A stretch of 64,000 nucleotides of DNA from a virus (IMGVR_UViG_3300012953_000013:32001-96000), one strand, 5' to 3'. Numbered from the stretch's first letter, positions 45,399 through 63,759 are shown. Program-made: numbers and translations. The notes: generated by a model from the letters alone, not told the origin.

Positions 45399-45806
45399 CT
45401 AATCTAATTCGTAATCTTTTTCAAACTCGTCTTTATCTATAATATAGAGAGTTTCTTCTTCGTCTTCTTCAGTGGAGTCTATTTCAGCTTCTTCGTCTTC
45501 TGGAGCAGTTTCTTGATTCGAAAATTGCCTTGGATGATTATCCGGTAGGTGACCATCCATGATTACACCTTCTTCACCCTCTGGTTCAACGCGGGGCTCT
45601 TCAGGGTCTCTTAAAACAACTTGTATTCCATCTTCATCAGATACCACATCATCAACAGTATATTCGTATCCACTGTCTTTATGCCTGACCTTTAAATCTT
45701 TAGAAACTATAATGTTCCCTTGGTCGTCTAAAACATCTACTTCAGAAAGAGCATTAACTAATTTCTTCGTGTATTCTTCTAGTAAAACTTTTCTTAATTT
45801 AATCAT
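45399..45806 (-). CDS. Acidic hypothetical protein
   Basis: Likely start MIKLRKVLLEE at 45806, overlapping the upstream stop. Confidence 0.65.
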   Translation of the reverse strand: MIKLRKVLLEEYTKKLVNALSEVDVLDDQGNIIVSKDLKVRHKDSGYEYTVDDVVSDEDGIQVVLRDPEEPRVEPEGEEGVIMDGHLPDNHPRQFSNQETAPEDEEAEIDSTEEDEEETLYIIDKDEFEKDYELD

Positions 45807-48519
45807 CTTGAATGCCCGCCAATTTTCTCCAACGCGCCATGGCGTCATAGTCATTAGATTCAGTTAAAACGTATTTATCTTCTTCAAAAAATCCGTAATC
45901 AAAATTTTCAGCGAAAACTTCCATACCAGCAGCCATGTTAATAGCTTTCCTCAGCTTTCTACGCGCTCTAGTTGCTTTTTGGCCCTGGCTTACGATATCG
46001 GGATGTTTCTTTAGAATCGCCGCTAACTTATTTTTATCTATTGGAATCTTTCCGAGAGTGCCTGCAGCTTTTTTAGCTTCATCATCAAGCTTCTTTTGCT
46101 CTTCATCAGTAATGCCTGCGGGATCCTCAATGTCCAATTCAGCGTTTGGATCAACTGCTTCTTCTTCTCCAGAAAGAGCCGTTTTTAAAGCTTCTAAATC
46201 TGGCTCAGGAACACCAGATACTTCGACTCCAAGCTCTTTAAAAGATGGAATAGCCTTTGCAAAGACTGCATATAATAAATCAGTTGAGATATCTCCTGCG
46301 TGCTTGTCAATAGTTTTTTGTACATCAACCCAAGAATACTGTCCCTCAAAAAGTAAACCAGAGAGACTTTTTCTAAAGTAATTTTCTTCAAGCTGGAAAT
46401 CATCTCCAAAAAGCTCTTGGGAAACTTTTGCTAACACTGTAGGTACTTCTTTATCTTGGCCATCCGCTCCTATTAAATCAAGAAGCTCCTCGTCATTACC
46501 ATATACATCATCAATGGCAGATGCAATCTTACCACTAAACTCAGAAGTCTTTATGGAATTTGTAGCGCTTTCTTCTTCGCCGCCTTCTTCTTCCTCTTCT
46601 TCTGGTTGTTCATCGCCGCCAATTTTGTACTTAGCATATTCTTCGCTTTTTTCTGCAGCTTTATTGACTAGGTCCACAAACTCTGGAACATCTGCCAATT
46701 TGGGTGCTCCATCTCCTTTTTGATCAGTGTATGTGTTATTAAAGTCAACATCCATATCTTTAAGATCGTCTTGTTCATAACCAGCTCTATCAGAAGCACC
46801 TAAAAGAACTTCAAAGGTATCTAAAGACGGGGGACCACCATAGAAATATTTTCCGTCTAACCAGAATCCAAGCTGTGATCGCCTTTTAGCAGTGGCATCT
46901 AAGTCATCCCATTTCGGAAGAGCTTCTTCGATTTCTAAATCAATAGCTTGGTCTGAAAAAACTTGGTTGATTTTTTGAACTAATCCACTTGTGTCGACGT
47001 CTTTAAAAACTTCTTCATTTTCTTCCATCGCTGCGCCGACGATTGCTTGATAGTCTTCAGCCGAAACAGATGCTTCTGTTAAAGCTCCTAAATTCTTGTA
47101 TCGTAAACTTTCTTCAATCGTTATATTCAGATTCTTGAAAATGTCGGAATCTAACAATTTACTTACTATTATACTGCCTGCTTCTCCAGAAATCTCTTTT
47201 GCCTTAGCCAGTATTTCTTTTTTAGATAAAACTTGAGATACATCTTCTGGATCTAATTCTTCAGCACCTTCAGCTTCATCTTCTAGATCTTCAATAGCTT
47301 CATCAGTTTCACCCGTAGGGGGCTTAATTGGGTTGCCTGATTTATCAACTACCTCAATGCCTTGGTCTACTAATGCTTGAGCAAAGGGGGCTATCAGTGG
47401 CTCTATGGCGTCAGCGCCTAATCCCTTAAGTGGCCCGGGTGCATGTTTTCCAAAAACACCTACAAGGTCTGGCCATTTTACTTGCTCTAAAAGTAAAAAA
47501 GATAGAGAAGATCTATAAGACTCAGACAGGCCGGCAATCTTTTTAAAGTCCGGATCTTTAGAAACAGCGGCCATCCACTGCTGACCGAGCTTTAAAAGTC
47601 CTGCATCAGCACCATCAGATTTAAGCTTATCGAGCCACGCCTGTCCAGCTTTTCCAATTTCATCAGCTGTTAAATTGGTATCTGCCTCTTCTTCAGTTCC
47701 GCCTGTTGAATCTTCGTTATTAGCATTAGACATTGCGTCATCTACAGCACCATCGTCTGGTGTGGGTACCGAATTAAGCGCTTCTACCAAGCTTGCCAAC
47801 TCGGGAAGAGTTAACTCCATAATTTCTGGCATGACGTTTTCAAGAGGAAATTCTGATAAAGTGACCCCAGGAATCTTGGCAGCTTTTCCGCCAAGCTTCT
47901 TCATTAGGCCTTGAGAGTCTTTAAGTTCCTCATTTCCCATAGATTTGTCAAAAGCTTTTTTAATTCCGGAAGCAATGTCTTCTTTAGTAAGTCCAGTCTC
48001 AGCAGGAACATCAACCAATTTTATTTCGTCAGCTAACTTTCCCTCTAAGTTTCTTTGAACCAGTGCAGTGGCCTCTCCTAGTGCTTTAAGTCCGCCAGCA
48101 GCTTGCGTATCTATTAATGCAACAGCAGCAACTCCATTTGCCACTGTAAAACCTTTCCCAAAAACGCTCTTAACCCAGTCTTTAGCGCCCTTAGGCTTAT
48201 TCAAATCCAGCTTCATCACAAATTTTTCTGCAGCTTGGATATTTCTACCTTGGGCTTGGTACCACGCAGCGGCAGATGGAAGCTTAGTACTTAAAGCCTC
48301 TACTTTCAAAATATTAACTAAATACTCTTTGAGTTTTGTTGTGGATGTTCTAAGAGCTTCTACATCGGGCTGGTCTAAATCACCTTCGGTGATAAGATAC
48401 AATAAATTTCCCTCTAAGAGAGCTTCATCTTCCGACAAAGATTTTCTCAATATCTCTCTTAAGAACTCTTGATTTTGCGGATAAAAACTGTTAAAAGATT
48501 CTGACATTTTCGTTCCCAT
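45799..48519 (-). CDS. 906-aa acidic hypothetical protein (probable internal head protein)
   Basis: Repeated ES.R..L..LL.E linkers; ends RWRKLAGI. Confidence 0.75.
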   Translation of the reverse strand: MGTKMSESFNSFYPQNQEFLREILRKSLSEDEALLEGNLLYLITEGDLDQPDVEALRTSTTKLKEYLVNILKVEALSTKLPSAAAWYQAQGRNIQAAEKFVMKLDLNKPKGAKDWVKSVFGKGFTVANGVAAVALIDTQAAGGLKALGEATALVQRNLEGKLADEIKLVDVPAETGLTKEDIASGIKKAFDKSMGNEELKDSQGLMKKLGGKAAKIPGVTLSEFPLENVMPEIMELTLPELASLVEALNSVPTPDDGAVDDAMSNANNEDSTGGTEEEADTNLTADEIGKAGQAWLDKLKSDGADAGLLKLGQQWMAAVSKDPDFKKIAGLSESYRSSLSFLLLEQVKWPDLVGVFGKHAPGPLKGLGADAIEPLIAPFAQALVDQGIEVVDKSGNPIKPPTGETDEAIEDLEDEAEGAEELDPEDVSQVLSKKEILAKAKEISGEAGSIIVSKLLDSDIFKNLNITIEESLRYKNLGALTEASVSAEDYQAIVGAAMEENEEVFKDVDTSGLVQKINQVFSDQAIDLEIEEALPKWDDLDATAKRRSQLGFWLDGKYFYGGPPSLDTFEVLLGASDRAGYEQDDLKDMDVDFNNTYTDQKGDGAPKLADVPEFVDLVNKAAEKSEEYAKYKIGGDEQPEEEEEEGGEEESATNSIKTSEFSGKIASAIDDVYGNDEELLDLIGADGQDKEVPTVLAKVSQELFGDDFQLEENYFRKSLSGLLFEGQYSWVDVQKTIDKHAGDISTDLLYAVFAKAIPSFKELGVEVSGVPEPDLEALKTALSGEEEAVDPNAELDIEDPAGITDEEQKKLDDEAKKAAGTLGKIPIDKNKLAAILKKHPDIVSQGQKATRARRKLRKAINMAAGMEVFAENFDYGFFEEDKYVLTESNDYDAMARWRKLAGIQDD

Positions 48520-48625: not shown

Positions 48626-49183
48626 TCAGCTTTTAAGAGCGTTCCAAAGCTCCCACTCCAAACCAATCTCTTTCAAGTGATTCTTTATTTTCTTTTCTCT
48701 AGAAGACCAATCATTTCCCTTTAATTTTCTCGAATGCCACTCTATAAACAATTTATCTACTCTGTTTATTACGCCAGTCTCTATCAAATCTTCTAATACG
48801 ACATACTCAGCGCCCTCAATATCCAGTTTAAGATATATTAAGTCGTTTTCTTCTGTGTTGCTTGAAATAAAAGTAGACAATCTCACGGTCTCTACTTTAG
48901 AAGGATTTTTTCTATCTAGCTTTCCAGAATTTTTCTCAGCAATCAAAGTAGAGCCGCCAGAGCCCTTTCTTTTGTCTACCAAAAAATCCATTGTGCCGTC
49001 TTCATTCCAGACCGCTTTATTAATTAGTTCGTGATTTTTAAACCCTTCATACTTATTATTCCAAGCACTACGAGGTTCAAATGTTATTATACGAAAAGAT
49101 TTATCTTTGTCGTGATTTTTCCTAAAGTGTCTCACTGAACACCCGTTATTTCCACCTGCATCTATAAAAAATTTTCTCGACAT
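48626..49183 (-). CDS. FkbM-family SAM methyltransferase
   Basis: IDAGGNNG; FEP; AVWNEDG; LKLDIEGAEY; IEWH. Confidence 0.85.
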   Translation of the reverse strand: MSRKFFIDAGGNNGCSVRHFRKNHDKDKSFRIITFEPRSAWNNKYEGFKNHELINKAVWNEDGTMDFLVDKRKGSGGSTLIAEKNSGKLDRKNPSKVETVRLSTFISSNTEENDLIYLKLDIEGAEYVVLEDLIETGVINRVDKLFIEWHSRKLKGNDWSSREKKIKNHLKEIGLEWELWNALKS

Positions 49184-49587
49184 TAAAAAGCCCTGACTTT
49201 AATTCCAGATTTTTTTAGTATATCTACGCCAGACATATCTCTATAAGCTTCTTTATAGATAACTTCATCAATCCCTGAATTAACTATTGCTTTCGCGCAC
49301 ATTCTACACGGAGATAGTGTTAAATAAAGCTTTTTCTTCTTGGGATTATTATAATCTAGTTTTATTAAAGCGTTAATCTCAGCATGGAGCATTCCAGAAT
49401 TCCCAGGAACTTGTGATTCTACTTCATTGGGTCCGCCTGCATAGTTTCCATTGTATCCAATCGCTAAAACTTGGCAATTATCTTCAGTTACGATCACCGA
49501 TCCGACTTGAAATCTAGGGTCGTAAGACCTTTTAGCAATAGCGTGACAAAAGTCCATCCATATCTCATCCCAATTTGGTCGACTCAT
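49183..49587 (-). CDS. dCMP deaminase (ComEB-like)
   Basis: VGSVIV, GYNG, HAEINA, SPCRMC. Confidence 0.9.
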   Translation of the reverse strand: MSRPNWDEIWMDFCHAIAKRSYDPRFQVGSVIVTEDNCQVLAIGYNGNYAGGPNEVESQVPGNSGMLHAEINALIKLDYNNPKKKKLYLTLSPCRMCAKAIVNSGIDEVIYKEAYRDMSGVDILKKSGIKVRAF

Positions 49588-49591
49588 TTTA

Positions 49592-50317
49592 TTAATCTCC
49601 TAAGTTCTCAAACTCGTAAGGGTACATTTTTAAAAATTTCAAATACTGCTGTTGAACCTTTTCTTTTTTTCGTTGGCCAGATTCTCCCATATAGTAAGTT
49701 GAATAGTGGCGACGATCTTTTCTAGTTTTTACCCATATTCCCCATTTTTTTAATTCTACGCGAGGGGCTTTAAGAATATACAATAACTCATTGAAGTCTT
49801 CTTCTAGATTCTCAAACCTTAAAGTATGATCTATACAGGGCTTACCATCTAGCAAATAATATTTCTGCCATGGCAAAAACCGGTCTTTAGTCTGAAAAGA
49901 ATTGTTGACGTGCTTTGGATCTTTATCGACAAGATTTTGCTTTTTGTTGCTCCACCAAAAAGAAGATACTTCTGCATCCCATGGATTTCTAATTACGGCA
50001 ACTTTCAGATAATCTTTCCAAACAGAGTTGCCCCATTTTTTCTTGAATCTCGTTTGCTTTAAGATATTTTGCACTTGCCTTGGTGACCAATGTTTACCGT
50101 AACGCTTTGCAAGAGCAAATGCATCTTCGTCAAAAGACTCTTTTTTTAAAGTTTCATAGTAACTTACATTGTCATAAATACTTTCAATATCTTTTTTATT
50201 CCTAAAACACCAGATGTCAGACCCAGCGCAAATCTCAGCTAAAGAAACTTGAACGCTAGTAGAACCTGTTTTTTGAGGATTAAAAAATATAAACTTGTAT
50301 TTGTGATTTACTATCAA
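49592..50317 (-). CDS. Sulfotransferase family 2 protein
   Basis: FIFF..QKTGSTS (5'-PSB), VIRNPWD..VS (3'-PB), RFENLEEDF. Confidence 0.82.
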   Translation of the reverse strand: MIVNHKYKFIFFNPQKTGSTSVQVSLAEICAGSDIWCFRNKKDIESIYDNVSYYETLKKESFDEDAFALAKRYGKHWSPRQVQNILKQTRFKKKWGNSVWKDYLKVAVIRNPWDAEVSSFWWSNKKQNLVDKDPKHVNNSFQTKDRFLPWQKYYLLDGKPCIDHTLRFENLEEDFNELLYILKAPRVELKKWGIWVKTRKDRRHYSTYYMGESGQRKKEKVQQQYLKFLKMYPYEFENLGD

Positions 50318-51213
50318 CCCTTATCTACCTTCGGTTTAGAAGTCTTTGCTGCGCGGCGTTTTCGTGCAGTTTTTGGCTTGTCGAATAGGTCTTCCACATG
50401 CTGTCCTACTGGTAACTGGAATCCTGCAGCTTTTTTATGACCACCTCCGCCAAACCTCTTTGCTATTTCTGAAACATCAACAGTTTCGTGAAATGCCCTA
50501 AGACTTACTTTGGTTTCTCTTGCTTCATGGTCCCAATACCAAATCATTGCAAAATCTCAGTCTGGGCTTAACCTGGAGCCAATCTCTGACATCCAATGAG
50601 AGGCGTTTACAACCATAACATGCTTATCGTCCATTTTTCTATGAGAAGCTTTTTCGCATACTTTTTTAATAACTGTTTTTGAATATGCTAAAACATATGA
50701 TCCACGCTTTACTGCATCATCGAAAACTGAATCATCTTCAAATTTCTCAAACTCTTCAAACTCAAAAGGTACCATGTCAAACGCAGCAGCAAATTCTTTT
50801 GAATATGGAAGTTCCCACTTCCATAAATCTCTGTCCTCAATATAATTGATAAACTTTGGCGGCTCTTTTCCTGGGTGAAAAAAGTCCCACGCTAATCTAG
50901 CGCCTGAGTGCTTCATATCGAATATAGTGTTGCTGATATCGTGAAGTTCTACCACTGCAGATTTATGGTGGTCTATTACAATAAGCGCAGCAGCTTCCTC
51001 TATCATTTGTTTTGTTGTAGCGTTATCAAAAGAAAAATCTAAAATTGCTACATGCTTCCCTTTAATATCAGGGGGAGAGTCTCCATGCTTACAAGCATGA
51101 TACTCGGCTCTATTGCCAAGTAATTTCCATGCAGAATAAGCTGCACCGAATCCGTCAGTACAGTTAGCATGGTAAATTACGCAATCAATAAGTGATGGTT
51201 CTACTATAGGCAT
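50314..51213 (-). pseudogene. DHH/DHHA1 phosphoesterase interrupted by a single in-frame TGA at 50557-50559
   Basis: HANCTDG, LDF, IDHH and EDRD in the 5' part; ...RLSPD-TGA-DFAMIWY...SLR...GGGGHKKAAG continues in the same frame. Confidence 0.75.
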
Positions 51214-51687: not shown

Positions 51688-52251
51688 TTAAGGGTTAAAG
51701 TGTAAAAAACACTTCGGCTGATACATTTCTGACCCACCGACTTCAATTTGATGGTCTGAACGACCTCCGATTTTTTTTGTATAGTGTGCATCTAATCCGC
51801 AGGTTGAACATACTGCAGGGCAAACTTCTATTTTGGTTGCATAGGGCATCATTTCTTGCATTTCTTTATAAGGAGTAAAATCAGAAGAAAGCTGCAGAGA
51901 AGAAGCTAAGATAGTATGACCCTCTTTGAACAAAGAAACCAGAACTTCTCCCACTCCATCTATCATAAAAGCTTCGTCGACAGCAATTACAAAAGTTTCG
52001 TCTTCTTCTTGCCAAGCTGTGGCTTCTCTCAAATACCTTAGCAGCTCTTTGCCATCACCAATCCTTTTGGCAGATAGTTTGCCGCCCCAATGAGTGACAA
52101 TTTCTTCTTTAGAATAACGCTCATCAACATTTGGTTTAAATGCCAATATATTTCTACCTTGGTATGTGTACCTGTCTATAGCGCTTAAAAGCTTTGTAGT
52201 TTTCCCTCCAAACATTGGACCCACAAATAGCGTAAATTCATTATTCATCAA
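51688..52251 (-). CDS. tdk: Thymidine kinase
   Basis: GPMFGGKTT P-loop, IAVDEA, CSTC...C..H zinc site, YQPKC. Confidence 0.92.
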   Translation of the reverse strand: MMNNEFTLFVGPMFGGKTTKLLSAIDRYTYQGRNILAFKPNVDERYSKEEIVTHWGGKLSAKRIGDGKELLRYLREATAWQEEDETFVIAVDEAFMIDGVGEVLVSLFKEGHTILASSLQLSSDFTPYKEMQEMMPYATKIEVCPAVCSTCGLDAHYTKKIGGRSDHQIEVGGSEMYQPKCFLHFNP

Positions 52252-53233
52252 ACCCCCACCAAGAAAAAGTCTTTTCCAGACCGCTTATTAAACTATATTT
52301 TGGGAAGAACCCTAATTCTCTCTCTGCTTTTTTAGTACATGCTAAAGTGTGTTTTACGTCTCCAGGGCGAACTGGAGCATTTACAATCTCAACGCCAGGA
52401 AACTTTTCTTTAAAAATATCTAAAATATCATTATTTGAATAAGATTTTCCTGTACCTATATTAATTCTATCACCACAGAAATTTTGTTCACGAATAGCTG
52501 CTAAAATATTTGCCTCAGCAACATCTTCTACAAAAACCATATCTCTAGTTTGAGTGCCATCGCCATCACTTCTTAATGGCAAACCCTTTTTAACTTTATC
52601 GCACCAAGAAACAACAGCAGTCGAGTAAGGAGAATCACCGTATTGGTTAGGACCAAATACGTTAAAATATCTTAGACAAGCAATATCTAAATCATAGGCC
52701 TTAGAATAAAGCCGAGCCCATTCTTCTACATTTAATTTCTGAAGTGCATAAGGACTATTGGGATTTTTCCCGTGATCTTCTGTTGTGGGGAGAGACCACG
52801 GATCTCCATATACAGAGCAGCTTGAAGAAAATACGATCCTTTTGACATTTCCAATAGAGTGGGTAAACAATTGGATTGTTTTCATAAAATTTTCGTGTGT
52901 AGTTTCTACGGGATTCTGAATGGAGTACTCAACTCGGGGATTTGCAGCGCAGTGAAAAATCACGTCATATCTTTGGTCTACGATTCTTCTTATTACTTCT
53001 TGACTTACAAAATCTCCAACTAAAACTAAAATTTGGTCTGGAAAATTCTTGACTTGTTGTTCAAAAATATGCCCCATTTGAGTCGGTACTGTTCTAAAAG
53101 AGTGATCATCTAAGAAAGCATAATCACCATTCGACATGTCATCTACAATCTCAACTTCCCAGCCGTTATCTACTAATTTTTTTGAAATACATGACCCGAT
53201 AAATCCACAACCACCAGTTACAAGCGCTCGCAT
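52241..53233 (-). CDS. NAD-dependent epimerase/dehydratase (extended SDR)
   Basis: TGGCGFIG, SSCSVYG, YALQK, LRYFNVFGP, RDMVFVEDVA. Confidence 0.92.
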   Translation of the reverse strand: MRALVTGGCGFIGSCISKKLVDNGWEVEIVDDMSNGDYAFLDDHSFRTVPTQMGHIFEQQVKNFPDQILVLVGDFVSQEVIRRIVDQRYDVIFHCAANPRVEYSIQNPVETTHENFMKTIQLFTHSIGNVKRIVFSSSCSVYGDPWSLPTTEDHGKNPNSPYALQKLNVEEWARLYSKAYDLDIACLRYFNVFGPNQYGDSPYSTAVVSWCDKVKKGLPLRSDGDGTQTRDMVFVEDVAEANILAAIREQNFCGDRINIGTGKSYSNNDILDIFKEKFPGVEIVNAPVRPGDVKHTLACTKKAERELGFFPKYSLISGLEKTFSWWGFDE

Positions 53234-54397: not shown

Positions 54398-55264
54398 TCA
54401 GTCTTCTTCCTTTATTGTATATCCGTATTCTTCAAAATCAACTTTATAATCTACTGCTAACATTTTTTTAATTTTTTCTGAAATGATATTCTCAGTTTTC
54501 ATGTAGCGTATTTTTACAATATTTGAATGAGGGAGAACAGAATCACTCGAAATTATATCTCTATCTTTGAGATCTTTTAATAGATTTTCAAGATCTTCAA
54601 ATTTATAAATTTTTGTTTCAGGAGAAACATACCATCGGCATGGGTTTCTCTGCACACCGCCTCGGCCAAGGTCTGCAGTATTTTTAAAGTAAAATTCTAA
54701 CTGAGCGCCTGGTTCCATATTTCGAAAATCTAAACCGGTTTTTTCATAAAAATTACGGATAGTATATAGAATTTGCGACTCCGCTCTCTGTTTTCCTGGC
54801 AGCTCTATTAGGCTTTCAATATATTTTTTAATTCCAGCATGAGCTTTTTCAACTGGGGCATCTCTAACAGAAACAAATTCGTCTTCATGCGATACTTCTA
54901 AGCCTAATCGATGAAAATGATCCATAAAGTATTTGTCGTCATATGATATTTGCCCCTTTAACATTTTCCACACAGGTTCAACTTCAGTTTCATAATAAAG
55001 GTAGTTAAACCACATATTAAAATGAGAAACAACTCTTGTGTAGGGATGCCTGACAACTGTAAAAGTAAAGCCTGCGTTAACTGCTTCTTTCCAGTCTCTC
55101 CAAACACTATATACTTGGTGTCCTCCACCCACAGGAAAGTAATCTGGTTCTTTTATCCTGGTCCAGCCATTTTCTTCAATTAATTTTCTGACAGACATAC
55201 CTCCACATTTTGGTATGTGGATAAAATGAATGGTCTCACCATTTCTTTCGTAGAGTGGCATCAA
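54398..55264 (-). CDS. Sulfotransferase family 2 protein
   Basis: FIHIPKCGGMS; VRHPYTRVVS. Confidence 0.8.
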   Translation of the reverse strand: MMPLYERNGETIHFIHIPKCGGMSVRKLIEENGWTRIKEPDYFPVGGGHQVYSVWRDWKEAVNAGFTFTVVRHPYTRVVSHFNMWFNYLYYETEVEPVWKMLKGQISYDDKYFMDHFHRLGLEVSHEDEFVSVRDAPVEKAHAGIKKYIESLIELPGKQRAESQILYTIRNFYEKTGLDFRNMEPGAQLEFYFKNTADLGRGGVQRNPCRWYVSPETKIYKFEDLENLLKDLKDRDIISSDSVLPHSNIVKIRYMKTENIISEKIKKMLAVDYKVDFEEYGYTIKEED

Positions 55265-56133
55265 TCACCAACCTTATAATCGAATAACGAATAGTCGTCA
55301 CCATATAAAAACAAAAATACACTTTGAAAGCTTTGTGAAAACTCGCTTAGTGAAAAAGATTCTTTTTTAGATAATGAATATAGCTTTTTATTCTCTACAG
55401 AGAGCCCACGCTTGTACGACTCTTGATTTATTATATTTTTTTCTAAAAGCCTCTCTAATAGATTTTCTTTTTCTTCTAATTTAAAAACTTCAACAGTGGG
55501 ATCTACATAAAGTCTAGAAGGAGTGGGATTACCACCCCCGTGATTTATTTTATGGAACTTATGTTTCAAAAAACTATATAAAAAATTCTCTAGAATAGAT
55601 GATGAATACTTTATGCCTGAAATTTCTTCCCAAGCTGCAGCTAAAACCCTATGTTTATGAATCATATTAGCGTTGCGATCTTCAGATATTAGAGTTGTCA
55701 ATTTCATAAAACTTTTTTGTAGTTCTTCTGGTTTTAAAATAATATCTTTAGGGTAAGAGATACCAAGTTCAGAAAACACTAAATCAATATAATTTAGAAT
55801 AACCCAGTTATATTCGTGCTCTATCCCGTTAATTTGCATCTCCAAAACTTCATATAATCTCTCCATGTAGAGATCACCGTTTGTAGACATCCACATATTG
55901 CAGTGAGATACGATCCTGTCAATCGGGTTTCTAACTAAAGTAAATTTAAATTCGCACTCTTGTATTGCAGGAAAATTTCCCCAACATATTCTCGGTACAT
56001 GCGGAATCCCGCCCACTTCTGCTGGCAAATACTCCCAGTTATTGTCTGTCAAAAGTTTTTTTACAGATGTACCGCCACATTTAGGGATATGAGCAAAAAA
56101 TATTTTTTCATTATCTCTAATAAACGTTGGCAT
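55261..56133 (-). CDS. Sulfotransferase family 2 protein (tandem paralog)
   Basis: FAHIPKCGGTS; VRNPIDRIVS. Confidence 0.8.
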   Translation of the reverse strand: MPTFIRDNEKIFFAHIPKCGGTSVKKLLTDNNWEYLPAEVGGIPHVPRICWGNFPAIQECEFKFTLVRNPIDRIVSHCNMWMSTNGDLYMERLYEVLEMQINGIEHEYNWVILNYIDLVFSELGISYPKDIILKPEELQKSFMKLTTLISEDRNANMIHKHRVLAAAWEEISGIKYSSSILENFLYSFLKHKFHKINHGGGNPTPSRLYVDPTVEVFKLEEKENLLERLLEKNIINQESYKRGLSVENKKLYSLSKKESFSLSEFSQSFQSVFLFLYGDDYSLFDYKVGD

Positions 56134-57638
56134 TACAGTGCTCGATAAATTTTATCTTCTTTAGCGACGACTCCCTTTTTTACTAACTTCTGGAGAATCA
56201 TCCAACTTTCTTTCCAAGTTCCGTTTTGCTTATAGTGAACCAAACCCTTAGATTCAATTACCTTAGCAACCTCAGCGTGTTTACAAGCTCCACCAAGGCT
56301 ATTCATTATTGAAAGTATTTCAAGCTCTTTATTTGTAGCTGAAAAATCTAAACCAGTAGATTCAGACGGTGGTACAGTTGTCACTTCAGGACCTGAAGGT
56401 TCGGGGAGAGATTCTTGTTCCGGAACTTTTGATTCTAGGTCTGGAACACTATCTTCTTTCATAAATCCAAGCTTTTGCATTATGGATTTTGGCGTAATAA
56501 TCATTTTAACTTCCTCTTTTGAAATTGGGGCTGAAGCCCTTCGATTAGCAAGTTTCTTGTCTTCTCTAAGCTTTCTGTAAACACCAAACTGACAACAAGA
56601 AATTTCGCAACCAAAATTTGTAAAATATCCAAGCTCTGAAACTTTTTTCATATAGTAATCTGATTTATCAGAGCTCTTTAAATCAAAAAAACTGTTTTGA
56701 TGACGTCTTATAGCATTAATAAGCTTTTTTCCAACTTTGTCGTTAATCGAATGACCGCGATGTTCATAAAACCAGTTTATTGCATTCATCGCACCGACTC
56801 CAGGAACCACATAATCGTCATCTTCATCAATGTTTCCCGGCATTCCCTCAAATATTAAATTACCAACTTCTGGCATACGAGCCAAGTTACAGCTAAAGTG
56901 ATAACCGTAATAATTTCCAATCCCTTTATATGAATTTAGAAATTTAAATGACTCTTCCATCGTTGGCTTAGTTTTATAAAATTCAACCCATTGAGGGCCC
57001 AAAAAAGTAAACCAAAATAAAATATCTGATGGTCTAAGCATTCTTTTGGACCGATCGATGGCTGATGTTTTCTCCAAAATGTCAATTGGTGATCCTACAC
57101 TTCTAGCGTAGTTTCTAGCTGAGGTTTGTAAGCTGGTCCTAAGCTCAGTTGTTCCATAGATTTTTTCTTTATTTTTAACTACTTCTTCTATGTTTACGCA
57201 GAGTTTCTCTAGATATTTTGGATCATTGATAAACTTTTTATATACAACAAAATCATCTCCTGTACCCTCAACCATCATTTTAAGGGTCTTCGATGGCCCA
57301 TAGAATTTCACAATTGCAGCGTTAATAAGCTTATCTTCAAAAGTTGCTTTGGGGTTATAGAATAGGTTCTCGTTTAACCAGATAATCTCATCGTGAAAGC
57401 TACGGTTAGGGTGGAAGTAGGGAACTGACTTTCCATCAACTATAAACCCAAGCTTATACAAAAGAACTTTGTTTGGTTCGTGTTGAAACGTATCAAATGT
57501 GCAAGACTTTGCAAACCTAACAAGATATTCTCTTCGATTCAACTCTTTAATAAAATGAACAAAATCATCTTTCTTATACTGAGGGATTTCATCGAAGAGT
57601 TCTTCGTCTGTATATTTTAAAAGCTCTCTATTGCTCAT
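56133..57638 (-). CDS. aGPT-Pplase1 / 5-hmdU DNA kinase-type helical protein with C-terminal winged helix
   Basis: YFHPNR..D, LINAAI, E....L....GIG.YY (HhH), D...V.PGVGA, E...CQF..Y.K; last ~70 aa look like a wHTH. Confidence 0.65.
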   Translation of the reverse strand: MSNRELLKYTDEELFDEIPQYKKDDFVHFIKELNRREYLVRFAKSCTFDTFQHEPNKVLLYKLGFIVDGKSVPYFHPNRSFHDEIIWLNENLFYNPKATFEDKLINAAIVKFYGPSKTLKMMVEGTGDDFVVYKKFINDPKYLEKLCVNIEEVVKNKEKIYGTTELRTSLQTSARNYARSVGSPIDILEKTSAIDRSKRMLRPSDILFWFTFLGPQWVEFYKTKPTMEESFKFLNSYKGIGNYYGYHFSCNLARMPEVGNLIFEGMPGNIDEDDDYVVPGVGAMNAINWFYEHRGHSINDKVGKKLINAIRRHQNSFFDLKSSDKSDYYMKKVSELGYFTNFGCEISCCQFGVYRKLREDKKLANRRASAPISKEEVKMIITPKSIMQKLGFMKEDSVPDLESKVPEQESLPEPSGPEVTTVPPSESTGLDFSATNKELEILSIMNSLGGACKHAEVAKVIESKGLVHYKQNGTWKESWMILQKLVKKGVVAKEDKIYRAL

Positions 57639-58047
57639 GCAAATCCTCTAAGTGCCTTCTGTTTTCTTTAGCAACGTGAGGGTTGTTAACATGAATCACT
57701 TTCGTTCCAATATTCCAGGTTTCTACTTCATTTAATTTTCTTTCTATCTCAGCTTTTTGAACTTCATCATCTTCAAAAAAATATTGAACGCTGAGTCCTG
57801 CTCTATGGAGAATCTTAATAGTTTCTCCTTTGTGCCACCCTGAACTCTGACGAGTTTTTTCTGAGTAGTCACATTGATTAAAGAAAACTGGGTTATTAAT
57901 TCCATTACGACGAAGAAAAGCCAAAGTTTCAGCTTCTTCTTCATAACTACGACCAGTGATAATTACATCTCCTGGGCCTGGACGAATTCCACAAACTCCA
58001 TCGCCAAGATGGATAACGCCATCAATATCAAAACCGTTAACCTTCAT
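57628..58047 (-). CDS. HAD-superfamily phosphatase
   Basis: FDIDGV (motif I), ITGR (II), FEDD (IV). Confidence 0.8.
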   Translation of the reverse strand: MKVNGFDIDGVIHLGDGVCGIRPGPGDVIITGRSYEEEAETLAFLRRNGINNPVFFNQCDYSEKTRQSSGWHKGETIKILHRAGLSVQYFFEDDEVQKAEIERKLNEVETWNIGTKVIHVNNPHVAKENRRHLEDLHEQ

Positions 58048-58756
58048 TGAATTCTCCTCTTTTTCTTATAAAAAACTGAGTGCCTAAAATCATCATGTCT
58101 AAAGACCTTGTGTCACACCAAACCCTATAATGAGGAGATAGAGCCTGGCCGTTTCCTGGGTTGAGCATTTCGCTTAAACCAATTAGTTTCGTATTCCCAG
58201 TCTTCCAAGCAATTAAAGTATTCTCGTGTGGAGGAGTCAAACCAATAGACATTGCAAATTGATTGACTGCTTCTACAGCTCCCCAATCTGATTTTTGTGT
58301 ATAATCATCTCCAGTTATCCAACCGCCCGGCTTAAGTTTTGGCCACCAACTCTCAAGATCTATTTTTACAGCTTCATACCTATGGTCGCCATCAATGTAA
58401 ATCCAGTCAAAATAATTGTTAGAAAAATTCTTAGCAGCGTTTTCAGAAAAATCTCTGTATACAGAAATCTTGGTTTCATCGCTGCTCATCTCATCAGCCC
58501 AATTTTTTACTTTTTGAAACCTAGCATCTTGTTCTTCTTGAGAGTCTTTTGCGTGTTGGTCGTGCTGATCTGTTTGCTGCACCCAAGGGTCTACTAAGTG
58601 AATTTCTGACGGGTTTTTGGAAAAAATCTTGCGAGAAAATGCGCCATTGAAAACACCTATTTCTGCACACTTAGCTCCCTGGGCTATTTTTTCTAAAACC
58701 CTGTCTTCGTAGACTCTTTCTCCTGGATTTTCTTTTTTGAAATTATCTCTAAGCAT
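58037..58756 (-). CDS. Class I SAM methyltransferase (Methyltransf_24-like)
   Basis: EIGVFNG, VDPW, IYIDGDH.YE, LKPGG..TGDDY. Confidence 0.85.
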   Translation of the reverse strand: MLRDNFKKENPGERVYEDRVLEKIAQGAKCAEIGVFNGAFSRKIFSKNPSEIHLVDPWVQQTDQHDQHAKDSQEEQDARFQKVKNWADEMSSDETKISVYRDFSENAAKNFSNNYFDWIYIDGDHRYEAVKIDLESWWPKLKPGGWITGDDYTQKSDWGAVEAVNQFAMSIGLTPPHENTLIAWKTGNTKLIGLSEMLNPGNGQALSPHYRVWCDTRSLDMMILGTQFFIRKRGEFNEG

Positions 58757-59468
58757 TATCTTTCCTAAAGAAAGTATAGTCTAAAACTTTCGTTGTTCCA
58801 TACATTAAAATTGGATGTTCTACCTTCTTCCACTTAGACTCTGGAAAAAACAGACTAGGATATTGATCAAAAGGAGAACGAGTGTTATGAAATTCAATGC
58901 CAACAATTTCAACAAAATCCGGAATTTTTGGAATAGAATCTAGGATATCGTACTCTTTGCCTTCAATATCAATCTTTAATATTTCTGGTCGGTATTTTTC
59001 TAAAAGACTAGAAAAAGAAATCCCGGGGACTGAAATAGTAGTAGAAGATGCATTCCTTCTCCGAAGAGTTGATGAAGAAACAGAATTACGCTTGGATTTA
59101 GCGTAGTGAAAAACTACTTCATTTTCATCTTCTTCACACACTGCGGCGTTAATACACTCTACACCCGGGGCATTAATTTCCAAAAGTTGAAAATTATGAG
59201 GGCAGGGCTCGAGTGCAATAATCTTCTTTGCGCCGTTATCCAAACACATCTTAGCAAATCCACCAATATTGGCCCCAAGGTCTAATACGGTTTTGCCTTC
59301 AACTGGAATGCATGTGTAATTGTCTATACACTCCTTAATTGAACTCAAATCAAATGTATCGGGACGATACCACATCCCTTTTCTTGAGTTCCATTTTATT
59401 TCGCACTCTTCGAAGGCTGGTACAGCTGGATTAAACCGCATGCCCGTCTGTTCGTGGATTTTAGCCAT
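58749..59468 (-). CDS. FkbM-family SAM methyltransferase
   Basis: VLDLGANIG, ALEP, LKIDIEG.EY. Confidence 0.88.
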   Translation of the reverse strand: MAKIHEQTGMRFNPAVPAFEECEIKWNSRKGMWYRPDTFDLSSIKECIDNYTCIPVEGKTVLDLGANIGGFAKMCLDNGAKKIIALEPCPHNFQLLEINAPGVECINAAVCEEDENEVVFHYAKSKRNSVSSSTLRRRNASSTTISVPGISFSSLLEKYRPEILKIDIEGKEYDILDSIPKIPDFVEIVGIEFHNTRSPFDQYPSLFFPESKWKKVEHPILMYGTTKVLDYTFFRKDNA

Positions 59469-60658
59469 TAATCTACCTCTTTGTTATGAGATGGACAAAT
59501 CTTATAAAGCTCTTCAGCGTCGTAAGAAGATGTCTGCCTCTTTGTGAATCTGGTTAATTGTCGCTCTGAAAGTGCATCACATTCATAAAGCGTTTCGCTA
59601 AACATAAGTTGTTGTGGAGGAGTTTTTTGCGTAAATGCTGACGGGCCTCGAAGAGCACCAACAATCCCCATTTCTCTAGCGGTCTTGAGATAACGAACTG
59701 CATCAATAACAACTCCGCCAGAGTTTGGAGAATCAATTACAGAGAGTCGAGCATCAAAAGTTACCGGAGCGCCAAGAAACCCTTCCATCTCTACTCTAAA
59801 ATTAGCAACCTTGTTATCTCCATAATAGCGAATGTATTCTGAAGGTCCCGCATGGAGAAATGACTCATCTGGGTCGACTCCCCGAATTACATGTTGAGAG
59901 CGAATAACGTTTTCCTTAGATACCTTTTTATACTTGAGGCGCGATTGATCGACCATGTTCAAGAAATCAGTGTTTCCGCCAACATTTCTCTGAATATGAG
60001 CTTTAACATTTAAGCCGCGAGCAAAGGCCAGTTCTTGTAGCATTTGAGAAAGAATAGAAGCTCCAAACTGTGATTTCATATCATCACCAATTAATGGAAT
60101 TCCAGCATCGATAAACTTTTGTTCCCACTCTGGATTAGAAGCAATAAATACGGGAATGCAGTTTAGTAGAGAAACACCAGCATCTAGACAAGCTTGGGCG
60201 TAATACTCTGTAGCTTTCTGAGACCCAACTGGAAGATAATTGATTAGAATATCAACCTTGCGATCTTCTAGTATCTGAACCACATCTACGGGCTCTTCAT
60301 TTGAAACTCTGAAGGCTTCATCATCTGGATAATCACTCATCAAGCTTGGTACCCCATCAAGCACTGGACCCATTTGAACTATTGGACCATCAGGTACATT
60401 CGCTTCGTATTCTGGAGTACAGTTTGGCTTAGCCCACATTGCTTCCCTAAAACACTTACCGACTTTTCGCTTATCTACGTCAAATGCAGCCACAACCTCA
60501 ATATTCGCAACTGAGTATCCGCCAATTCGAGACTTCATTACTCCGTCTCTTTCTTGGCCGGCTGTATATCCAGCATAGTATGTTAAACCTTGATAAAGCG
60601 AATTTGCGCAGTTTCCGACGCCTACAATTGCTACTCTAATATTTTGCTTTTTACTCAT
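59468..60658 (-). CDS. ino1: myo-Inositol-1-phosphate synthase (inositol-3-phosphate synthase)
   Basis: VAIVGVGNCA, AAFDVD..KVG, NYLPVGS, N.IPVFIA, GDD.KSQFGA, NVGGNTDF.NM, DSPNSGG. Confidence 0.93.
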   Translation of the reverse strand: MSKKQNIRVAIVGVGNCANSLYQGLTYYAGYTAGQERDGVMKSRIGGYSVANIEVVAAFDVDKRKVGKCFREAMWAKPNCTPEYEANVPDGPIVQMGPVLDGVPSLMSDYPDDEAFRVSNEEPVDVVQILEDRKVDILINYLPVGSQKATEYYAQACLDAGVSLLNCIPVFIASNPEWEQKFIDAGIPLIGDDMKSQFGASILSQMLQELAFARGLNVKAHIQRNVGGNTDFLNMVDQSRLKYKKVSKENVIRSQHVIRGVDPDESFLHAGPSEYIRYYGDNKVANFRVEMEGFLGAPVTFDARLSVIDSPNSGGVVIDAVRYLKTAREMGIVGALRGPSAFTQKTPPQQLMFSETLYECDALSERQLTRFTKRQTSSYDAEELYKICPSHNKEVD

Positions 60659-60681
60659 TAATTCTTTCTCCTAATTTAGAA

Positions 60682-61746
60682 TTATTCTTTATTATGTCGC
60701 GGGTTGGGTTGATTGTTAAATAAATCCCAGTAATAAGACATCGGACTCAAATGAACACTTTTTGGGCGTTCCATATATTCAAAATCAAGCTCCCCCGATT
60801 CATTCAAAAATCCCGGTGGCCACTCAAAAGTTTGCCACTTATTCTCTATTGATATTTTATCAACAGCAGCATTAAATGTATTGACTAACTTTGTTCTTTC
60901 TTCCCAAGTTCCAAAATATGGAGTCTTCTTATAATATCCAGTTTTAGGGAGCTTTCTAGAAATATTTTCTATTGGAAGAGCATGAACAATCTCAACGTTT
61001 GGAACTCCAAGAGACTTAAGCTGGTGCCCGAGCTCGATTCCCATCGCGTGGGCTTTCTCAAACGGGTTTTCTTGCCTCATGAGGTGATGGCGAATATCAA
61101 TATTCCCCATATAGAAAGTCAAGTGAGTCAAATCGCTTACTTTCATACCAGATTTTTCTTCAATAATTTCTTTTACACCGTCGCGTATAGTAGAAAAAAG
61201 AGTAAGGCCATCATTTCGGCATACAGAATAACCGGGTTTCCAAGTAGAAAAACAATGGCTATCTCCGAAACAAAGTTTTGTAGTTTCTTCAACATGATTA
61301 AACCCCGGAGTTCTTTTACAAATTTCATCAAGCTTGTTTAAGTCTAGCTGGCCGACATTAGCACTTGTGGATTTATTATGCAATCTTCCCCTGATGGTCG
61401 TTCCAATGAGCGGCATCTCATGATTCATAATGTACGTGGGGCCAGAAAACTCTTGAATTCTCTTGAATCTACGAACTACGTTATCGTCGACGCCAAAGAA
61501 AAAGTTAATTGTGCCAGCATAAGCAATCCCGGGATAAAAAATCATGGCATCATACCCTTCATAGGTATCATGGTTTCCAAGAATAGTTACGTCTGTCCAG
61601 CCTGATGAATGGAGCATATTTTTATAAAGCCATACCCAAGCTGCATTGTGGCTATGCTTTCGGGTTGGAATATTTCGCTCTAGTCCATCAATTCCGATCT
61701 TAGCATCTTTTGGAAGATCTGATGCGACTTCTAAAAATGTTTTCAC
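60682..61746 (-). CDS. Hypothetical protein with an SGNH-hydrolase-like C-terminal domain
   Basis: Start GTG at 61746 after AGGAG; GDSH, DG, GNID and SVHLSP blocks. Confidence 0.55.
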   Translation of the reverse strand: MKTFLEVASDLPKDAKIGIDGLERNIPTRKHSHNAAWVWLYKNMLHSSGWTDVTILGNHDTYEGYDAMIFYPGIAYAGTINFFFGVDDNVVRRFKRIQEFSGPTYIMNHEMPLIGTTIRGRLHNKSTSANVGQLDLNKLDEICKRTPGFNHVEETTKLCFGDSHCFSTWKPGYSVCRNDGLTLFSTIRDGVKEIIEEKSGMKVSDLTHLTFYMGNIDIRHHLMRQENPFEKAHAMGIELGHQLKSLGVPNVEIVHALPIENISRKLPKTGYYKKTPYFGTWEERTKLVNTFNAAVDKISIENKWQTFEWPPGFLNESGELDFEYMERPKSVHLSPMSYYWDLFNNQPNPRHNKE

Positions 61747-61747
61747 A

Positions 61748-62188
61748 TTAAACTCCTGTGCTGCCAAAGCCGCCAGCACCACGGGTTGTAGTTGAATAAA
61801 AAAGCTCTTTATCTGGCACTACTTTTACATCAGGATACTTGACTGGCAACAATAAAAATTGAACAATTTTTTCTCCTCCCTCTAAAGCTACCGGCTCTGT
61901 ACCAGAATTCATGAGGTGCAGATGAATTTCGCCCTGGTAGTCTTCATCAACGACGCAAGCTCCCACTGTTAACTTCTTTTTCAGAGCTACGCCACTCTTG
62001 TTGTGAGCTACAAAAGCGTAGCCTTTAGGGACATTAACTCTGATTCCAGATGGAATACAGACGTCTCCTCCTGGAGGCACGCTTGCTGATAAGCCATCAG
62101 GTACATAAAAGTCTAGACCTGCAGATCCAGGGGTTCCTCGAGTCGGCGTCTTTACTTCTCTAGTTTTTGACATTTTTATGTTTTTCAT
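61748..62188 (-). CDS. dut: Trimeric dUTPase
   Basis: SAGLD, KSG, GACVVDEDYQGEI, QFLL, RGAGGFGSTG. Confidence 0.92.
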   Translation of the reverse strand: MKNIKMSKTREVKTPTRGTPGSAGLDFYVPDGLSASVPPGGDVCIPSGIRVNVPKGYAFVAHNKSGVALKKKLTVGACVVDEDYQGEIHLHLMNSGTEPVALEGGEKIVQFLLLPVKYPDVKVVPDKELFYSTTTRGAGGFGSTGV

Positions 62189-62629: not shown

Positions 62630-62888
62630 CATTGATGTAATTTTGCCATCCCCCAATATAAGCAACAGCGTCTAGTAAATTGTCTTCTTTAAAATTGTAA
62701 GACTGCCTAGAAAACTTGAGAGCAATCATGGCGATAAACATATCGTCCGCGGTCCAGTTTCGACCTGACATCCCACTAGCAATCATTGCAGCGCGCTCAA
62801 AACCTTCGCCCAAGGGACCATATTGACGCTCTTTTTCTTCTGAGCGATTATTGATTATTTCATCTGCTTGTTTTAGAATATTAGCCAT
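62604..62888 (-). CDS. DUF6378-like all-alpha (MazG-type) nucleotide-associated protein
   Basis: IL..A..II...R.....QYG; M.ALK.SR......DN..D...Y. Confidence 0.7.
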   Translation of the reverse strand: MANILKQADEIINNRSEEKERQYGPLGEGFERAAMIASGMSGRNWTADDMFIAMIALKFSRQSYNFKEDNLLDAVAYIGGWQNYINEKRRSNEK

Positions 62889-63759
62889 TGAAAATAACTC
62901 CCTTTATTTTGTTTACGTGATCAAATATTTCAGATTTTTCCATATCACTAGATGGAAGCTCTGCTGACAAAGATAAAAGCTTTTTATAAGTTAGATCTGG
63001 CTTTAAAACCGTTTTATCAGTTTGGGGATAATGACCACCCAAAACGCTTACATAATAATTGTCTAAAATCTTATCCATCATCTTAAAGTGTCTCTCATAA
63101 ATGTGAAAACTTCCTGCATTATGATAATATGTCCCAAGATGGAGATTCATGCCGTGATCGTTTAAGTGATTAAGCATCAACTGTTGAAAAAGAGCGAATG
63201 TAAAAACATCGTTGCAAAAACCAAAAATGGCATCATTAGATCTCATATAGACGCCCATATCCAAAACACCTTCTCTTATAAAAAACTGAATATATTGAGT
63301 ACATGGATAATCTTTAGAATTTTTTTCTTTATGATATGGCTGGTTAATTGCTATAGTTGCTCTCCTGGTGTCTGGATCGCTTACTAGCTCATTTACAACC
63401 CAATTCCATTGAGAAATATACATTTTGTTCAAAACAGGAAAAATATAAGACCCATAATTTGACTCTGCTTCGCCAAATTGGTCTTGGATATCAGCCCAAA
63501 TAGATGCAAGCTTAGATATGTTGTTTACTTTTTGGTTTGAAGATACGTACCAAAGCCACTCTGCAATAGCATAATTTATGTTAAATTTTCGAGCAGGAAC
63601 AATAATATCTAGCTGTTCAGGGTTCTTAATTTGAAAGGAAACAAATGTTCTTTCTAGCTGTTTAGAGCCCCTAGAATGAACTATATTTCCGGCCATTTTT
63701 AGTTTAGCTAGCTCTTCAACGAAAGCTTCATTTAGATTATAGTACATCATTTTTACCAC
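62881..63759 (-). CDS. Thymidylate-synthase-family enzyme with dCMP-hydroxymethylase signature
   Basis: DTRRA, DYPCT (catalytic Cys), MRSNDAIFGFCND (Asp where dUMP-specific TS has Asn), HIYERHF. Confidence 0.85.
   Translation of the reverse strand: MVKMMYYNLNEAFVEELAKLKMAGNIVHSRGSKQLERTFVSFQIKNPEQLDIIVPARKFNINYAIAEWLWYVSSNQKVNNISKLASIWADIQDQFGEAESNYGSYIFPVLNKMYISQWNWVVNELVSDPDTRRATIAINQPYHKEKNSKDYPCTQYIQFFIREGVLDMGVYMRSNDAIFGFCNDVFTFALFQQLMLNHLNDHGMNLHLGTYYHNAGSFHIYERHFKMMDKILDNYYVSVLGGHYPQTDKTVLKPDLTYKKLLSLSAELPSSDMEKSEIFDHVNKIKGVIFNG

Follow-up and report, generated by a model that had tools for sequence, protein, structure and literature searches.

A phage gene cluster that pairs inositol synthesis with predicted hypermodification of cytosine in DNA

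Introduction

Why should a virus carry a gene for inositol synthesis among genes that alter the bases of its DNA? The question is raised by a run of minus-strand genes in a window of 64,000 nucleotides (the whole stretch of DNA analysed), which corresponds to bases 32001-96000 of the 184,866-base IMG/VR virus record IMGVR_UViG_3300012953_000013. The run encodes a myo-inositol-3-phosphate synthase (MIPS), a HAD phosphatase, an SGNH-fold protein and a helical HhH protein, and lies downstream of a thymidylate synthase (TS) homolog. The answer towards which we lean, with modest confidence, is a post-replicative hypermodification that attaches inositol made by the phage to cytosine in DNA, at the C5 methylene. 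This interpretation, an inositol adduct of 5-hydroxymethylcytosine (hmC), is supported by comparative and structural evidence, its chemistry being a prediction.

Known phage hypermodifications attach sugars from nucleoside diphosphate (NDP)-sugars, or amino acids and polyamines via a kinase/transferase pair. The cluster points to a third adduct class, a phage-made cyclitol, to Pplase-type exchange chemistry extended from thymine to cytosine, and to an SGNH partner where a kinase is expected. If real, the system would provide a new DNA base and a kinase-free functionalisation of hmC, of interest for epigenetic labelling tools, and would be a new obstacle to restriction and CRISPR defences.

Organisation of the cluster

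Nearly all genes of the window are on the minus strand. From position 63759 the order is TS homolog, DUF6378 protein, two small open reading frames (ORFs), dUTPase, SGNH protein (354 residues) and MIPS, followed by an FkbM methyltransferase, a Methyltransf_24 methyltransferase, HAD (139 residues) and the helical protein (501 residues). The features are:

62881..63759, minus strand: TS homolog with the signature of a dCMP hydroxymethylase (5hmdCMP synthase); PF00303, 82 bits
62604..62888, minus strand: DUF6378 protein; PF19905, 1.4e-10; in relatives its gene accompanies both the module and the TS homolog
61748..62188, minus strand: dUTPase-family nucleotide pyrophosphatase; PF00692, 8e-23
60682..61746, minus strand: two-domain protein, Rossmann-like N-half and SGNH-fold C-half; model with a predicted local distance difference test score (pLDDT) of 88
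59468..60658, minus strand: predicted myo-inositol-3-phosphate synthase (MIPS/Ino1 type); PF01658, 78.9 bits, 3.9e-22
58749..59468, minus strand: FkbM-family O-methyltransferase; PF05050, 5.6e-16; TIGR01444, 83 bits
58037..58756, minus strand: Methyltransf_24/TylF-like methyltransferase; PF13578, 6e-18
57628..58047, minus strand: minimal HAD phosphatase, partner of MIPS; invariant D7-x-D9-G-V, T31-G-R-S, K73 and D93-D94
56133..57638, minus strand: helical HhH protein of the aGPT-Pplase/HMUDK_hel superfamily, with a winged helix; PF18723, 26.3 bits

A reading made earlier without database searches (the sequence-only reading) had placed a coupled run of six products, namely an SGNH-like protein, MIPS, two O-methyltransferase-type enzymes, HAD and a helical HhH-type protein with a winged helix, at 56133-61746, downstream of a dCMP-hydroxymethylase-like gene. 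All six were found there on the minus strand, with junctions that overlap by 1-11 nucleotides or leave gaps of at most 23 nucleotides, and the upstream gene at 62881-63759 carries that signature. Megablast of the cluster against cultured phages gave no match, and a promoter and terminator scan gave no signal above shuffled background. Throughout the lineage of the window a dUTPase gene is kept between the SGNH gene and that of the TS homolog.

Linkage of the module across phages

A search with MIPS recovered 26 viral loci, about 17 of which have the order TS-DUF6378-dUTPase-SGNH-MIPS-(FkbM)-HAD-helical-C5-methylase-like. A search with the helical family recovered 62 loci, all but the Aeromonas phage having adjoining MIPS, HAD and SGNH genes. 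Linkage was counted per 70%-identity cluster of the helical protein (n = 13), with MIPS scored within 7 kb. MIPS stands beside the helical protein in 12/13 clusters and an SGNH gene does so in 13/13, in at least four gene orders. Co-occurrence of MIPS with the modification genes in relatives, a check proposed by the sequence-only reading, was borne out, MIPS and HAD being present in 12 of the 13 clusters and in several orders. DUF6378 lies beside the SGNH gene in 50/69 loci and FkbM is present in 51/69. Dozens of viral contigs show this gene set, so the arrangement is far from chance.

Fusions were found between SGNH and helical proteins (Aeromonas phages 44RR and 31, phrog_17781), in the reverse order helical-SGNH (P0063, and P0342 with an extra domain) and between FkbM and helical proteins (P0093). 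The SGNH protein is an obligate partner of the helical protein and is sometimes fused to it. Aeromonas phages 31 and 44RR are the sole lineage without MIPS, and an SGLT-type Na+/solute symporter gene lies directly upstream of their fusion gene. The symporter of phage 31 (ORF234c, locus L002 5286-6809, upstream of ORF233c) matches vSGLT at 9e-104, its nearest relatives being vSGLT and human SGLT1/2. Sugar or polyol import seems to replace MIPS-based synthesis in these phages.

Homing endonuclease, deoxyribosyltransferase-like, uracil-DNA glycosylase (UDG)-superfamily and ribonucleotide reductase genes are interspersed with the module genes or flank them, so that the module is always set in DNA and nucleotide metabolism. 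Homing endonuclease genes (NUMOD3, HNH, NUMOD1) separate module genes at L068 8749-9360, L075 12606-13205 and L043 11736-12605, and these insertions may help the module to move. Nucleoside 2-deoxyribosyltransferase-like and UDG-superfamily genes lie inside the module of some lineages (L075 9153-9626, L076 7223-7648).

MIPS in other base-modification clusters

MIPS was also found outside the hmC-type module. Loci L023-L025 and phages Cr30 and RP13 carry MIPS, often with HAD, beside genes for ADDT, TAGT-like, HMUDK_hel, HMUD2 or small P-loop kinase proteins. An Asn-type (uracil) TS homolog lies near MIPS in L023 and L025. Caulobacter phage Cr30 (L096 3729-7176) encodes ADDT (gp123), a TAGT-like protein (gp122) and MIPS (gp121), and Ralstonia phage RP13 (L097 1924-11544) encodes HMUDK_hel (ORF120), MIPS (ORF125) and HMUD2 (ORF133). 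Both phages thus carry MIPS within thymine-hypermodification gene sets.

A third context is formed by 7-deazaguanine clusters, where MIPS, usually with HAD, lies among FolE, QueC-like, QueE-type radical SAM and TGT-like genes; Stenotrophomonas Menderavirus phages have MIPS in this type of context. The stretches are:

L001 (Stenotrophomonas phage IME-SM1), 8323-13623
L021, 8068-14085, with a HAD-QueC-like fusion
L022, 9161-11593
L027, 9998-13307

These clusters suggest a cyclitol derivative of the deazaguanine base. The three contexts are interleaved in the MIPS tree, where branches with good support require each context to have switched at least 3-5 times, so the link between MIPS and base-modification genes has been kept or re-made repeatedly.

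Inositol supply

MIPS matched Mycobacterium tuberculosis Ino1 (1gr0) at 1.3e-90, residues 6-352 aligning to 15-353 with about 50% identity. It scored 78.9 bits on PF01658 against a cut-off of 27 and matched phrog_33138 at 3.9e-149. The best and only NCBIfam match was TIGR03450, the equivalog of mycothiol INO1, at 344 bits (under the cut-off of 638). From its sequence the protein is predicted to be a bona fide inositol-3-phosphate synthase.

A homolog of this kind might instead make another cyclitol phosphate, for example a five-membered, carbocyclic nucleoside-like one, which would feed an unusual nucleotide and not a base adduct. The sub-cut-off INO1 equivalog score favours this, as does the second-best solved relative, a distant five-membered-cyclitol-phosphate synthase (6k96, 1.9e-52). 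The match to true Ino1 is far closer, and the module shows no recognisable additional enzymes for carbocycle tailoring, which makes such a product very improbable.

The HAD protein retains all four HAD motifs, invariant or nearly so in 11 homologs (D7, D9, G10, V11, T31, K73, D93, D94). Profile matches were weak (Hydrolase_6, E 0.17; phrog_415, polynucleotide kinase, 2.8e-8), and sequence and profile searches of the PDB gave no match. In the Atlas the closest clusters are those of small viral HAD phosphatases (score 0.92). The gene follows MIPS in hmC-, hmU- (5-hydroxymethyluracil) and deazaguanine-type clusters.

The modified base

The best PDB matches of the TS homolog were MilA (7.7e-30) and T4 gp42 (2e-20). 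Alignments to 1b49 and 5b6d place Asp at the positions of ThyA N177 and L143 and show that Asp169 is kept; together with the catalytic Cys, the Asp at N177, the acidic residue at L143 and Asp169 mark a dCMP hydroxymethylase of the T4 gp42 type, by a rule taken from PMC13326640. Look-alike enzymes of the TS family produce 5-hydroxy-dCMP and are marked by D169N, as described in a 2026 paper (PMC13326640). A 5-hydroxy-dCMP synthase of the RB69/DLP3 type was rejected for the TS homolog on the retained Asp169, and because that residue is retained hmC is the expected product.

TS homologs adjoining the module in distant loci are also of the Asp type. Asn at the ThyA 177 position, the mark of dUMP hydroxymethylases and of 5-hydroxymethyluracil supply, was absent from the TS homologs of the module, which carry Asp, unlike the ADDT-linked TS homologs of L023 and L025, which have Asn. 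Searches for a T4-type alpha- or beta-glucosyltransferase with PF09198 and PF11440 were blank, in a contig that is about 71% complete and with no working control.

The helical HhH protein

The model of the helical protein (pLDDT 87) consists of a helical domain (residues 1-380) joined by a disordered linker to a winged helix (residues 436-500). It has an HhH-like G-I-G hairpin, and the C-terminal winged helix resembles MecI (Z 9.8). The score on PF18723 (HMUDK_hel) was 26.3 bits against a cut-off of 25, and there was no match to Pfam ADDT (PF18724) even at E <= 10; true ADDT proteins (L024, L025, Cr30) score 1e-25 to 1e-52 on that profile. The protein is on the HMUDK_hel/Pplase1 side of the superfamily and not in Pfam ADDT.

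Structural comparison with VIA-align gave as best PDB match outside winged helices 8z2m, the PaMx11 gp46 5-phosphomethyl-dU (5-PmdU) glycinyltransferase, with Z 9.7 (a value within the range reachable by chance among helical folds) and a root-mean-square deviation of 4.3 over 231 residues. The next matches were a queuine-salvage glycosylase fold and Mag1. Matches in BFVD, all with probability 1.0, were the SP10 5-hmdU DNA kinase (2.5e-4), HMUDK-helical proteins and two Pplase1 proteins (4.6e-3); ORF233c of Aeromonas phage 31 was also matched. With Foldseek the helical domain had no significant match in the PDB; searching PDB sequences by sequence and by profile yielded nothing useful, and hhalign comparisons of the helical family with individual ADDT or HMUDK_hel sequences were uninformative.

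The family has an invariant Glu345-x3-Cys349-Gln motif. In the alignment of true ADDT proteins E258 and C262 are likewise invariant and have a matching local pattern, and the sole hhalign match of the helical and ADDT profiles, weak at E 0.22, superposes E345/C349 on E258/C262. A profile search of 1.84 billion representatives yielded 65 relatives of the helical protein, and E-x3-C-Q-[FY] is kept in 21/24 distant relatives examined. The aGPT-Pplase1 family call of the sequence-only reading is right at the level of the fold, given the BFVD and 8z2m matches and the common Glu-x3-Cys-Gln motif. In the aGPT-Pplase2 enzymes M6 gp51 and ViI gp247 this Cys and Glu are essential; C6 is attacked, the leaving group on the C5 methylene is lost and a free nucleophile is added, and the hydroxyl of serine can serve as nucleophile for ViI gp247 (PMC8989533). 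The structure of an amino-acid:DNA transferase has been described (PMC11472151).

Some close relatives of the phage of the window have a much more divergent homolog (23-25% identity) in the helical slot (L004 12442-13875, L019 11660-13114), while MIPS stays 77-90% identical in such relatives.

C5 methylases without S-adenosylmethionine can couple nucleophiles to hmC in vitro. A protein resembling them is encoded next to the module in 23/69 loci, including distant ones with the order helical-SGNH-C5-methylase-like, and it could be this protein that swaps the hydroxyl of hmC for the cyclitol, the helical protein merely presenting the base to the SGNH protein and the methyltransferases. The fusion of a helical domain to a catalytic kinase domain in 5-hmdU DNA kinases agrees with such a division of labour. 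In the largest lineage (35 loci) no C5-methylase-like gene was found within 7 kb of the helical gene and the helical protein retains the Glu-x3-Cys-Gln motif of the transferases, and we consider this route unlikely.

The SGNH partner

Residues 154-354 of the SGNH protein resemble GDSL esterases, PatB and OatA (Z 10-12.7, the highest being that to the GDSL esterase 7e16), and the fold was assigned with a Foldseek probability of 1.0. The catalytic set is invariant: G161-D-S-H164, G214-N-I-D217 and H332 (blocks I, III and V). The protein has no Pfam match, though the family is large (514 homolog matches); sequence and profile searches of PDB sequences gave nothing useful, and an Atlas search with the Rossmann-like N-half gave no usable match.

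SGNH enzymes are esterases or acyltransferases, and the SGNH and helical proteins might modify hmC with another group, such as an acyl ester or a small nucleophile, MIPS and HAD having a supporting role (cofactor, regulator or osmolyte). The SGNH-helical fusion occurs without MIPS in Aeromonas phages 31/44RR, and an activation step for ether formation was not identified. This alternative is doubtful, though it deserves to be kept in view: MIPS and HAD lie inserted between the genes of the two partners and have been retained through several rearrangements, MIPS also joins unrelated base-modification systems, and a sugar/polyol importer replaces it in 31/44RR.

Kinases, transferases and the destination of inositol

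The sequence-only reading saw no evident P-loop kinase domain in the window. Across the whole record, at its estimated completeness of about 71%, no DNA-kinase family was detected: there was no match to AAA_33 or HMUD2 and no second match to HMUDK_hel, the HMUD2 search being without a working control. A regular-expression scan for Walker A (G-x4-G-K-[ST]) in 24 distant helical-family representatives found none. The window does include three sulfotransferase-type genes and one for a thymidine kinase. Searches of the record for a CDP-alcohol phosphatidyltransferase, a sugar nucleotidyltransferase, GT2 and TAGT were all negative, so that phage-encoded lipid or glycan use is disfavoured. The absence of kinase and transferase genes fits the coupling of a free, unactivated cyclitol.

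Inositol could nevertheless be used outside DNA, in host or virion glycans, inositol lipids or as a compatible solute, with the region merely collecting auxiliary genes; use in envelope glycans or lipids was the chief alternative named by the sequence-only reading. The SDR epimerase, cupin and sulfotransferases of the window are typical of glycan pathways, and sulfotransferase homologs elsewhere accompany epimerases. Opposed to this are the failure to find CDP-alcohol phosphatidyltransferase, nucleotidyltransferase or glycosyltransferase genes in the record, the DNA-base enzymes that neighbour MIPS in every context examined, and the fusions of FkbM and SGNH to a DNA base-flipping domain, which tie the module to DNA; use elsewhere is accordingly judged improbable.

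Proposed pathway

Joining of inositol to hmC in DNA would proceed as follows. From its signature residues, the TS homolog would make 5-hydroxymethyl-dCMP, so that the phage DNA carries hmC. MIPS, by its close homology to Ino1, would convert host glucose-6-phosphate to inositol-3-phosphate, from which HAD would strip the phosphate before or after attachment of the cyclitol. The helical HhH protein probably flips the modified cytosine out, as its fold, its motif and the analogy with amino-acid:DNA transferases suggest. Cys349 would then attack C6, expelling the group on the C5 methylene with assistance from Glu345, and a cyclitol hydroxyl would add to the exocyclic methylene to give a 5-(inosityl-oxymethyl)cytosine ether (hmdC + 162 Da).

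The least certain step is activation. The likeliest role of the SGNH protein is to make the hydroxymethyl ready to leave, perhaps as an ester, or to handle it in some other way; it is given this role with low confidence, on the ground that in fused forms it stands in the position of the kinase domain. It may instead acylate the product, in line with the guess of the sequence-only reading. The FkbM methyltransferase would then O-methylate the DNA-bound group. In this phage the TylF-like methyltransferase and two or three sulfotransferases may decorate the adduct further. The likely benefit would be the shielding of phage DNA from host nucleases.

Comparison with known systems

Thymidine hypermodification by a 5-hmdU DNA kinase and an aGPT-Pplase2/ADDT enzyme is known from phages M6, ViI, PaMx11 and PhiW-14 (PMC8989533, PMC11472151). 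The proposed system resembles it in its post-replicative action on a 5-hydroxymethylpyrimidine that a TS homolog provides, in its helical base-flipping enzyme with a Glu-x3-Cys motif and tailoring enzymes alongside, and in the use of a free small molecule as nucleophile, a hydroxyl being used by ViI gp247. It differs in that the base is cytosine and not uracil, that an SGNH-fold protein is the fixed partner and no P-loop DNA kinase was found, and that the nucleophile would be a phage-made cyclitol and not an amino acid or polyamine. The 5-hmdU DNA kinase SP10 gp186 has the same helical fold and Pfam family, fused or coupled to a catalytic partner domain for the hydroxymethyl group; there the partner is a P-loop kinase and here it is of SGNH fold.

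T4 glucosylation of hmC and RB69/DLP3 arabinosylation of 5-hydroxycytosine (PMC13326640) likewise rely on a TS homolog that pre-makes the modified dCMP and on decoration of the base hydroxyl after replication, and the DLP3 cluster includes a small HAD sugar-phosphate phosphatase (gp81; PMC13326640). Unlike in those phages, no glycosyltransferase or NDP-sugar route was found here, and the donor would be an unactivated cyclitol attached via the base methylene; the TS homolog, with Asp169 kept, is of the hmC type and not of the RB69/DLP3 5-hydroxy type. An Ino1-type synthase followed by a phosphatase also supplies inositol in bacteria, through Ino1 and inositol monophosphatase in actinobacterial mycothiol and phosphatidylinositol synthesis. 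The phosphatase here, however, is a minimal HAD and not of IMPase fold, genes for the lipid or thiol pathways that would follow were not found, and the MIPS/HAD pair lies within DNA-modification clusters.

Sulfotransferases and other tailoring genes

The helical gene is followed by two sulfotransferase genes and a C5-methylase-like gene:

55261..56133, minus strand: sulfotransferase (Sulfotransfer_2); PF03567, 38.5 bits
54398..55264, minus strand: second sulfotransferase, a paralog with 32% identity; PF03567, 25 bits
53218..54396, minus strand: C5 cytosine DNA methylase-like protein; PF00145, 5.9e-19

Both sulfotransferases score above the PF03567 cut-off of 22, and a third copy (49592-50317) falls under it. 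Motifs for 3'-phosphoadenosine 5'-phosphosulfate (PAPS) were read in both paralogs, with a 5'-phosphosulfate-binding motif (5'-PSB) PKCGG[TM]S and a 3'-phosphate-binding motif (3'-PB) R-x-P-x-x-R-[IV]-V-S; in the protein of 55261..56133 these are PKCGGTS and RNPIDRIVS. The idea that the sulfotransferase-like genes are disguised P-loop DNA kinases was rejected, since both PAPS motifs are intact. An APS kinase search of the 184,866-base record found none, so PAPS would need to be supplied by the host.

No sulfotransferase homologs occur in related module loci, the insertion being specific to this phage, and the same holds for the Methyltransf_24/TylF-like gene. These genes may tailor a DNA-bound cyclitol, or may serve a glycan function of their own that was acquired at this site. 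Marine viral contigs (L098-L176) commonly carry Sulfotransfer_2-type genes, often near TylF-like genes (10 loci) and SDR epimerases (20 loci); this grouping looks like a separate glycan-type module.

Taken to its full extent, the proposal would have every cytosine as an O-methylated and O-sulfated inositol ether, made without a DNA kinase, the hydroxymethyl group being activated by the SGNH protein and not by ATP, and the free, unactivated cyclitol being coupled by the Pplase-type Cys enzyme. We hold this complete form to be a long shot. Were it true, this would be the first DNA base with a cyclitol and the first with a sulfate, and it would belong to a broader practice among phages of placing inositol on C, T and 7-deazaguanine of their DNA.

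Weighing the evidence

Several points count against the attachment of inositol to hmC. Many of the co-occurring loci belong to related phages, so the tallies do not stand for separate events. The record yielded no activating kinase, and all absences from it are provisional at its present completeness. Pfam places the helical protein only marginally in HMUDK_hel and outside ADDT; the Z of 9.7 to PaMx11 gp46 could be reached by chance among helical folds, and the profile-profile similarity to ADDT (E 0.22) is weak taken alone. We know of no precedent for an SGNH enzyme acting on DNA. Homologs of the sulfotransferases and of the TylF-like protein in other viral contigs accompany each other and SDR epimerases, not the module, and the link of these genes to DNA is weak. 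Full-text literature searches gave no report tying phage MIPS or inositol to DNA modification, and none of an inositol-bearing DNA base in the literature searched; the base is predicted from the genes.

Sister systems are present in cultured phages, with MIPS in clusters of Cr30, RP13 and Menderavirus and the SGNH-helical fusion in Aeromonas 31/44RR, and the idea is directly testable.

Neighbouring genes

Beyond the C5-methylase-like gene the cluster continues to about 48600 with an SDR epimerase, a thymidine kinase, a cupin, a DHH protein, the third sulfotransferase-like gene, a dCMP deaminase and a second FkbM gene. The first of these is:

52241..53233, minus strand: NAD-dependent SDR epimerase/dehydratase; PF01370, 1.6e-46

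The position of the SDR gene after the C5-methylase-like gene is kept across the lineage of the window. The protein is GalE-like, yet under equivalog cut-offs; a tailoring role or an unrelated sugar function is possible.

The DHH-family phosphoesterase (50314-51213) is apparently split into a DHH part of 218 residues and a piece of 77 residues, the latter with a Gly-Gly-Gly-His stretch resembling a DHHA1 domain; both pieces are kept in related phages. The distal end of the cluster (48626-49587) encodes the second FkbM-family methyltransferase (185 residues) and the dCMP-deaminase-type protein (134 residues). Directly downstream of the cluster lies an ORF of 906 residues (45799-48519) with no Pfam or PHROG match, whose conservation in related contigs is weak (31-33%) and limited to the first ~240-320 residues.

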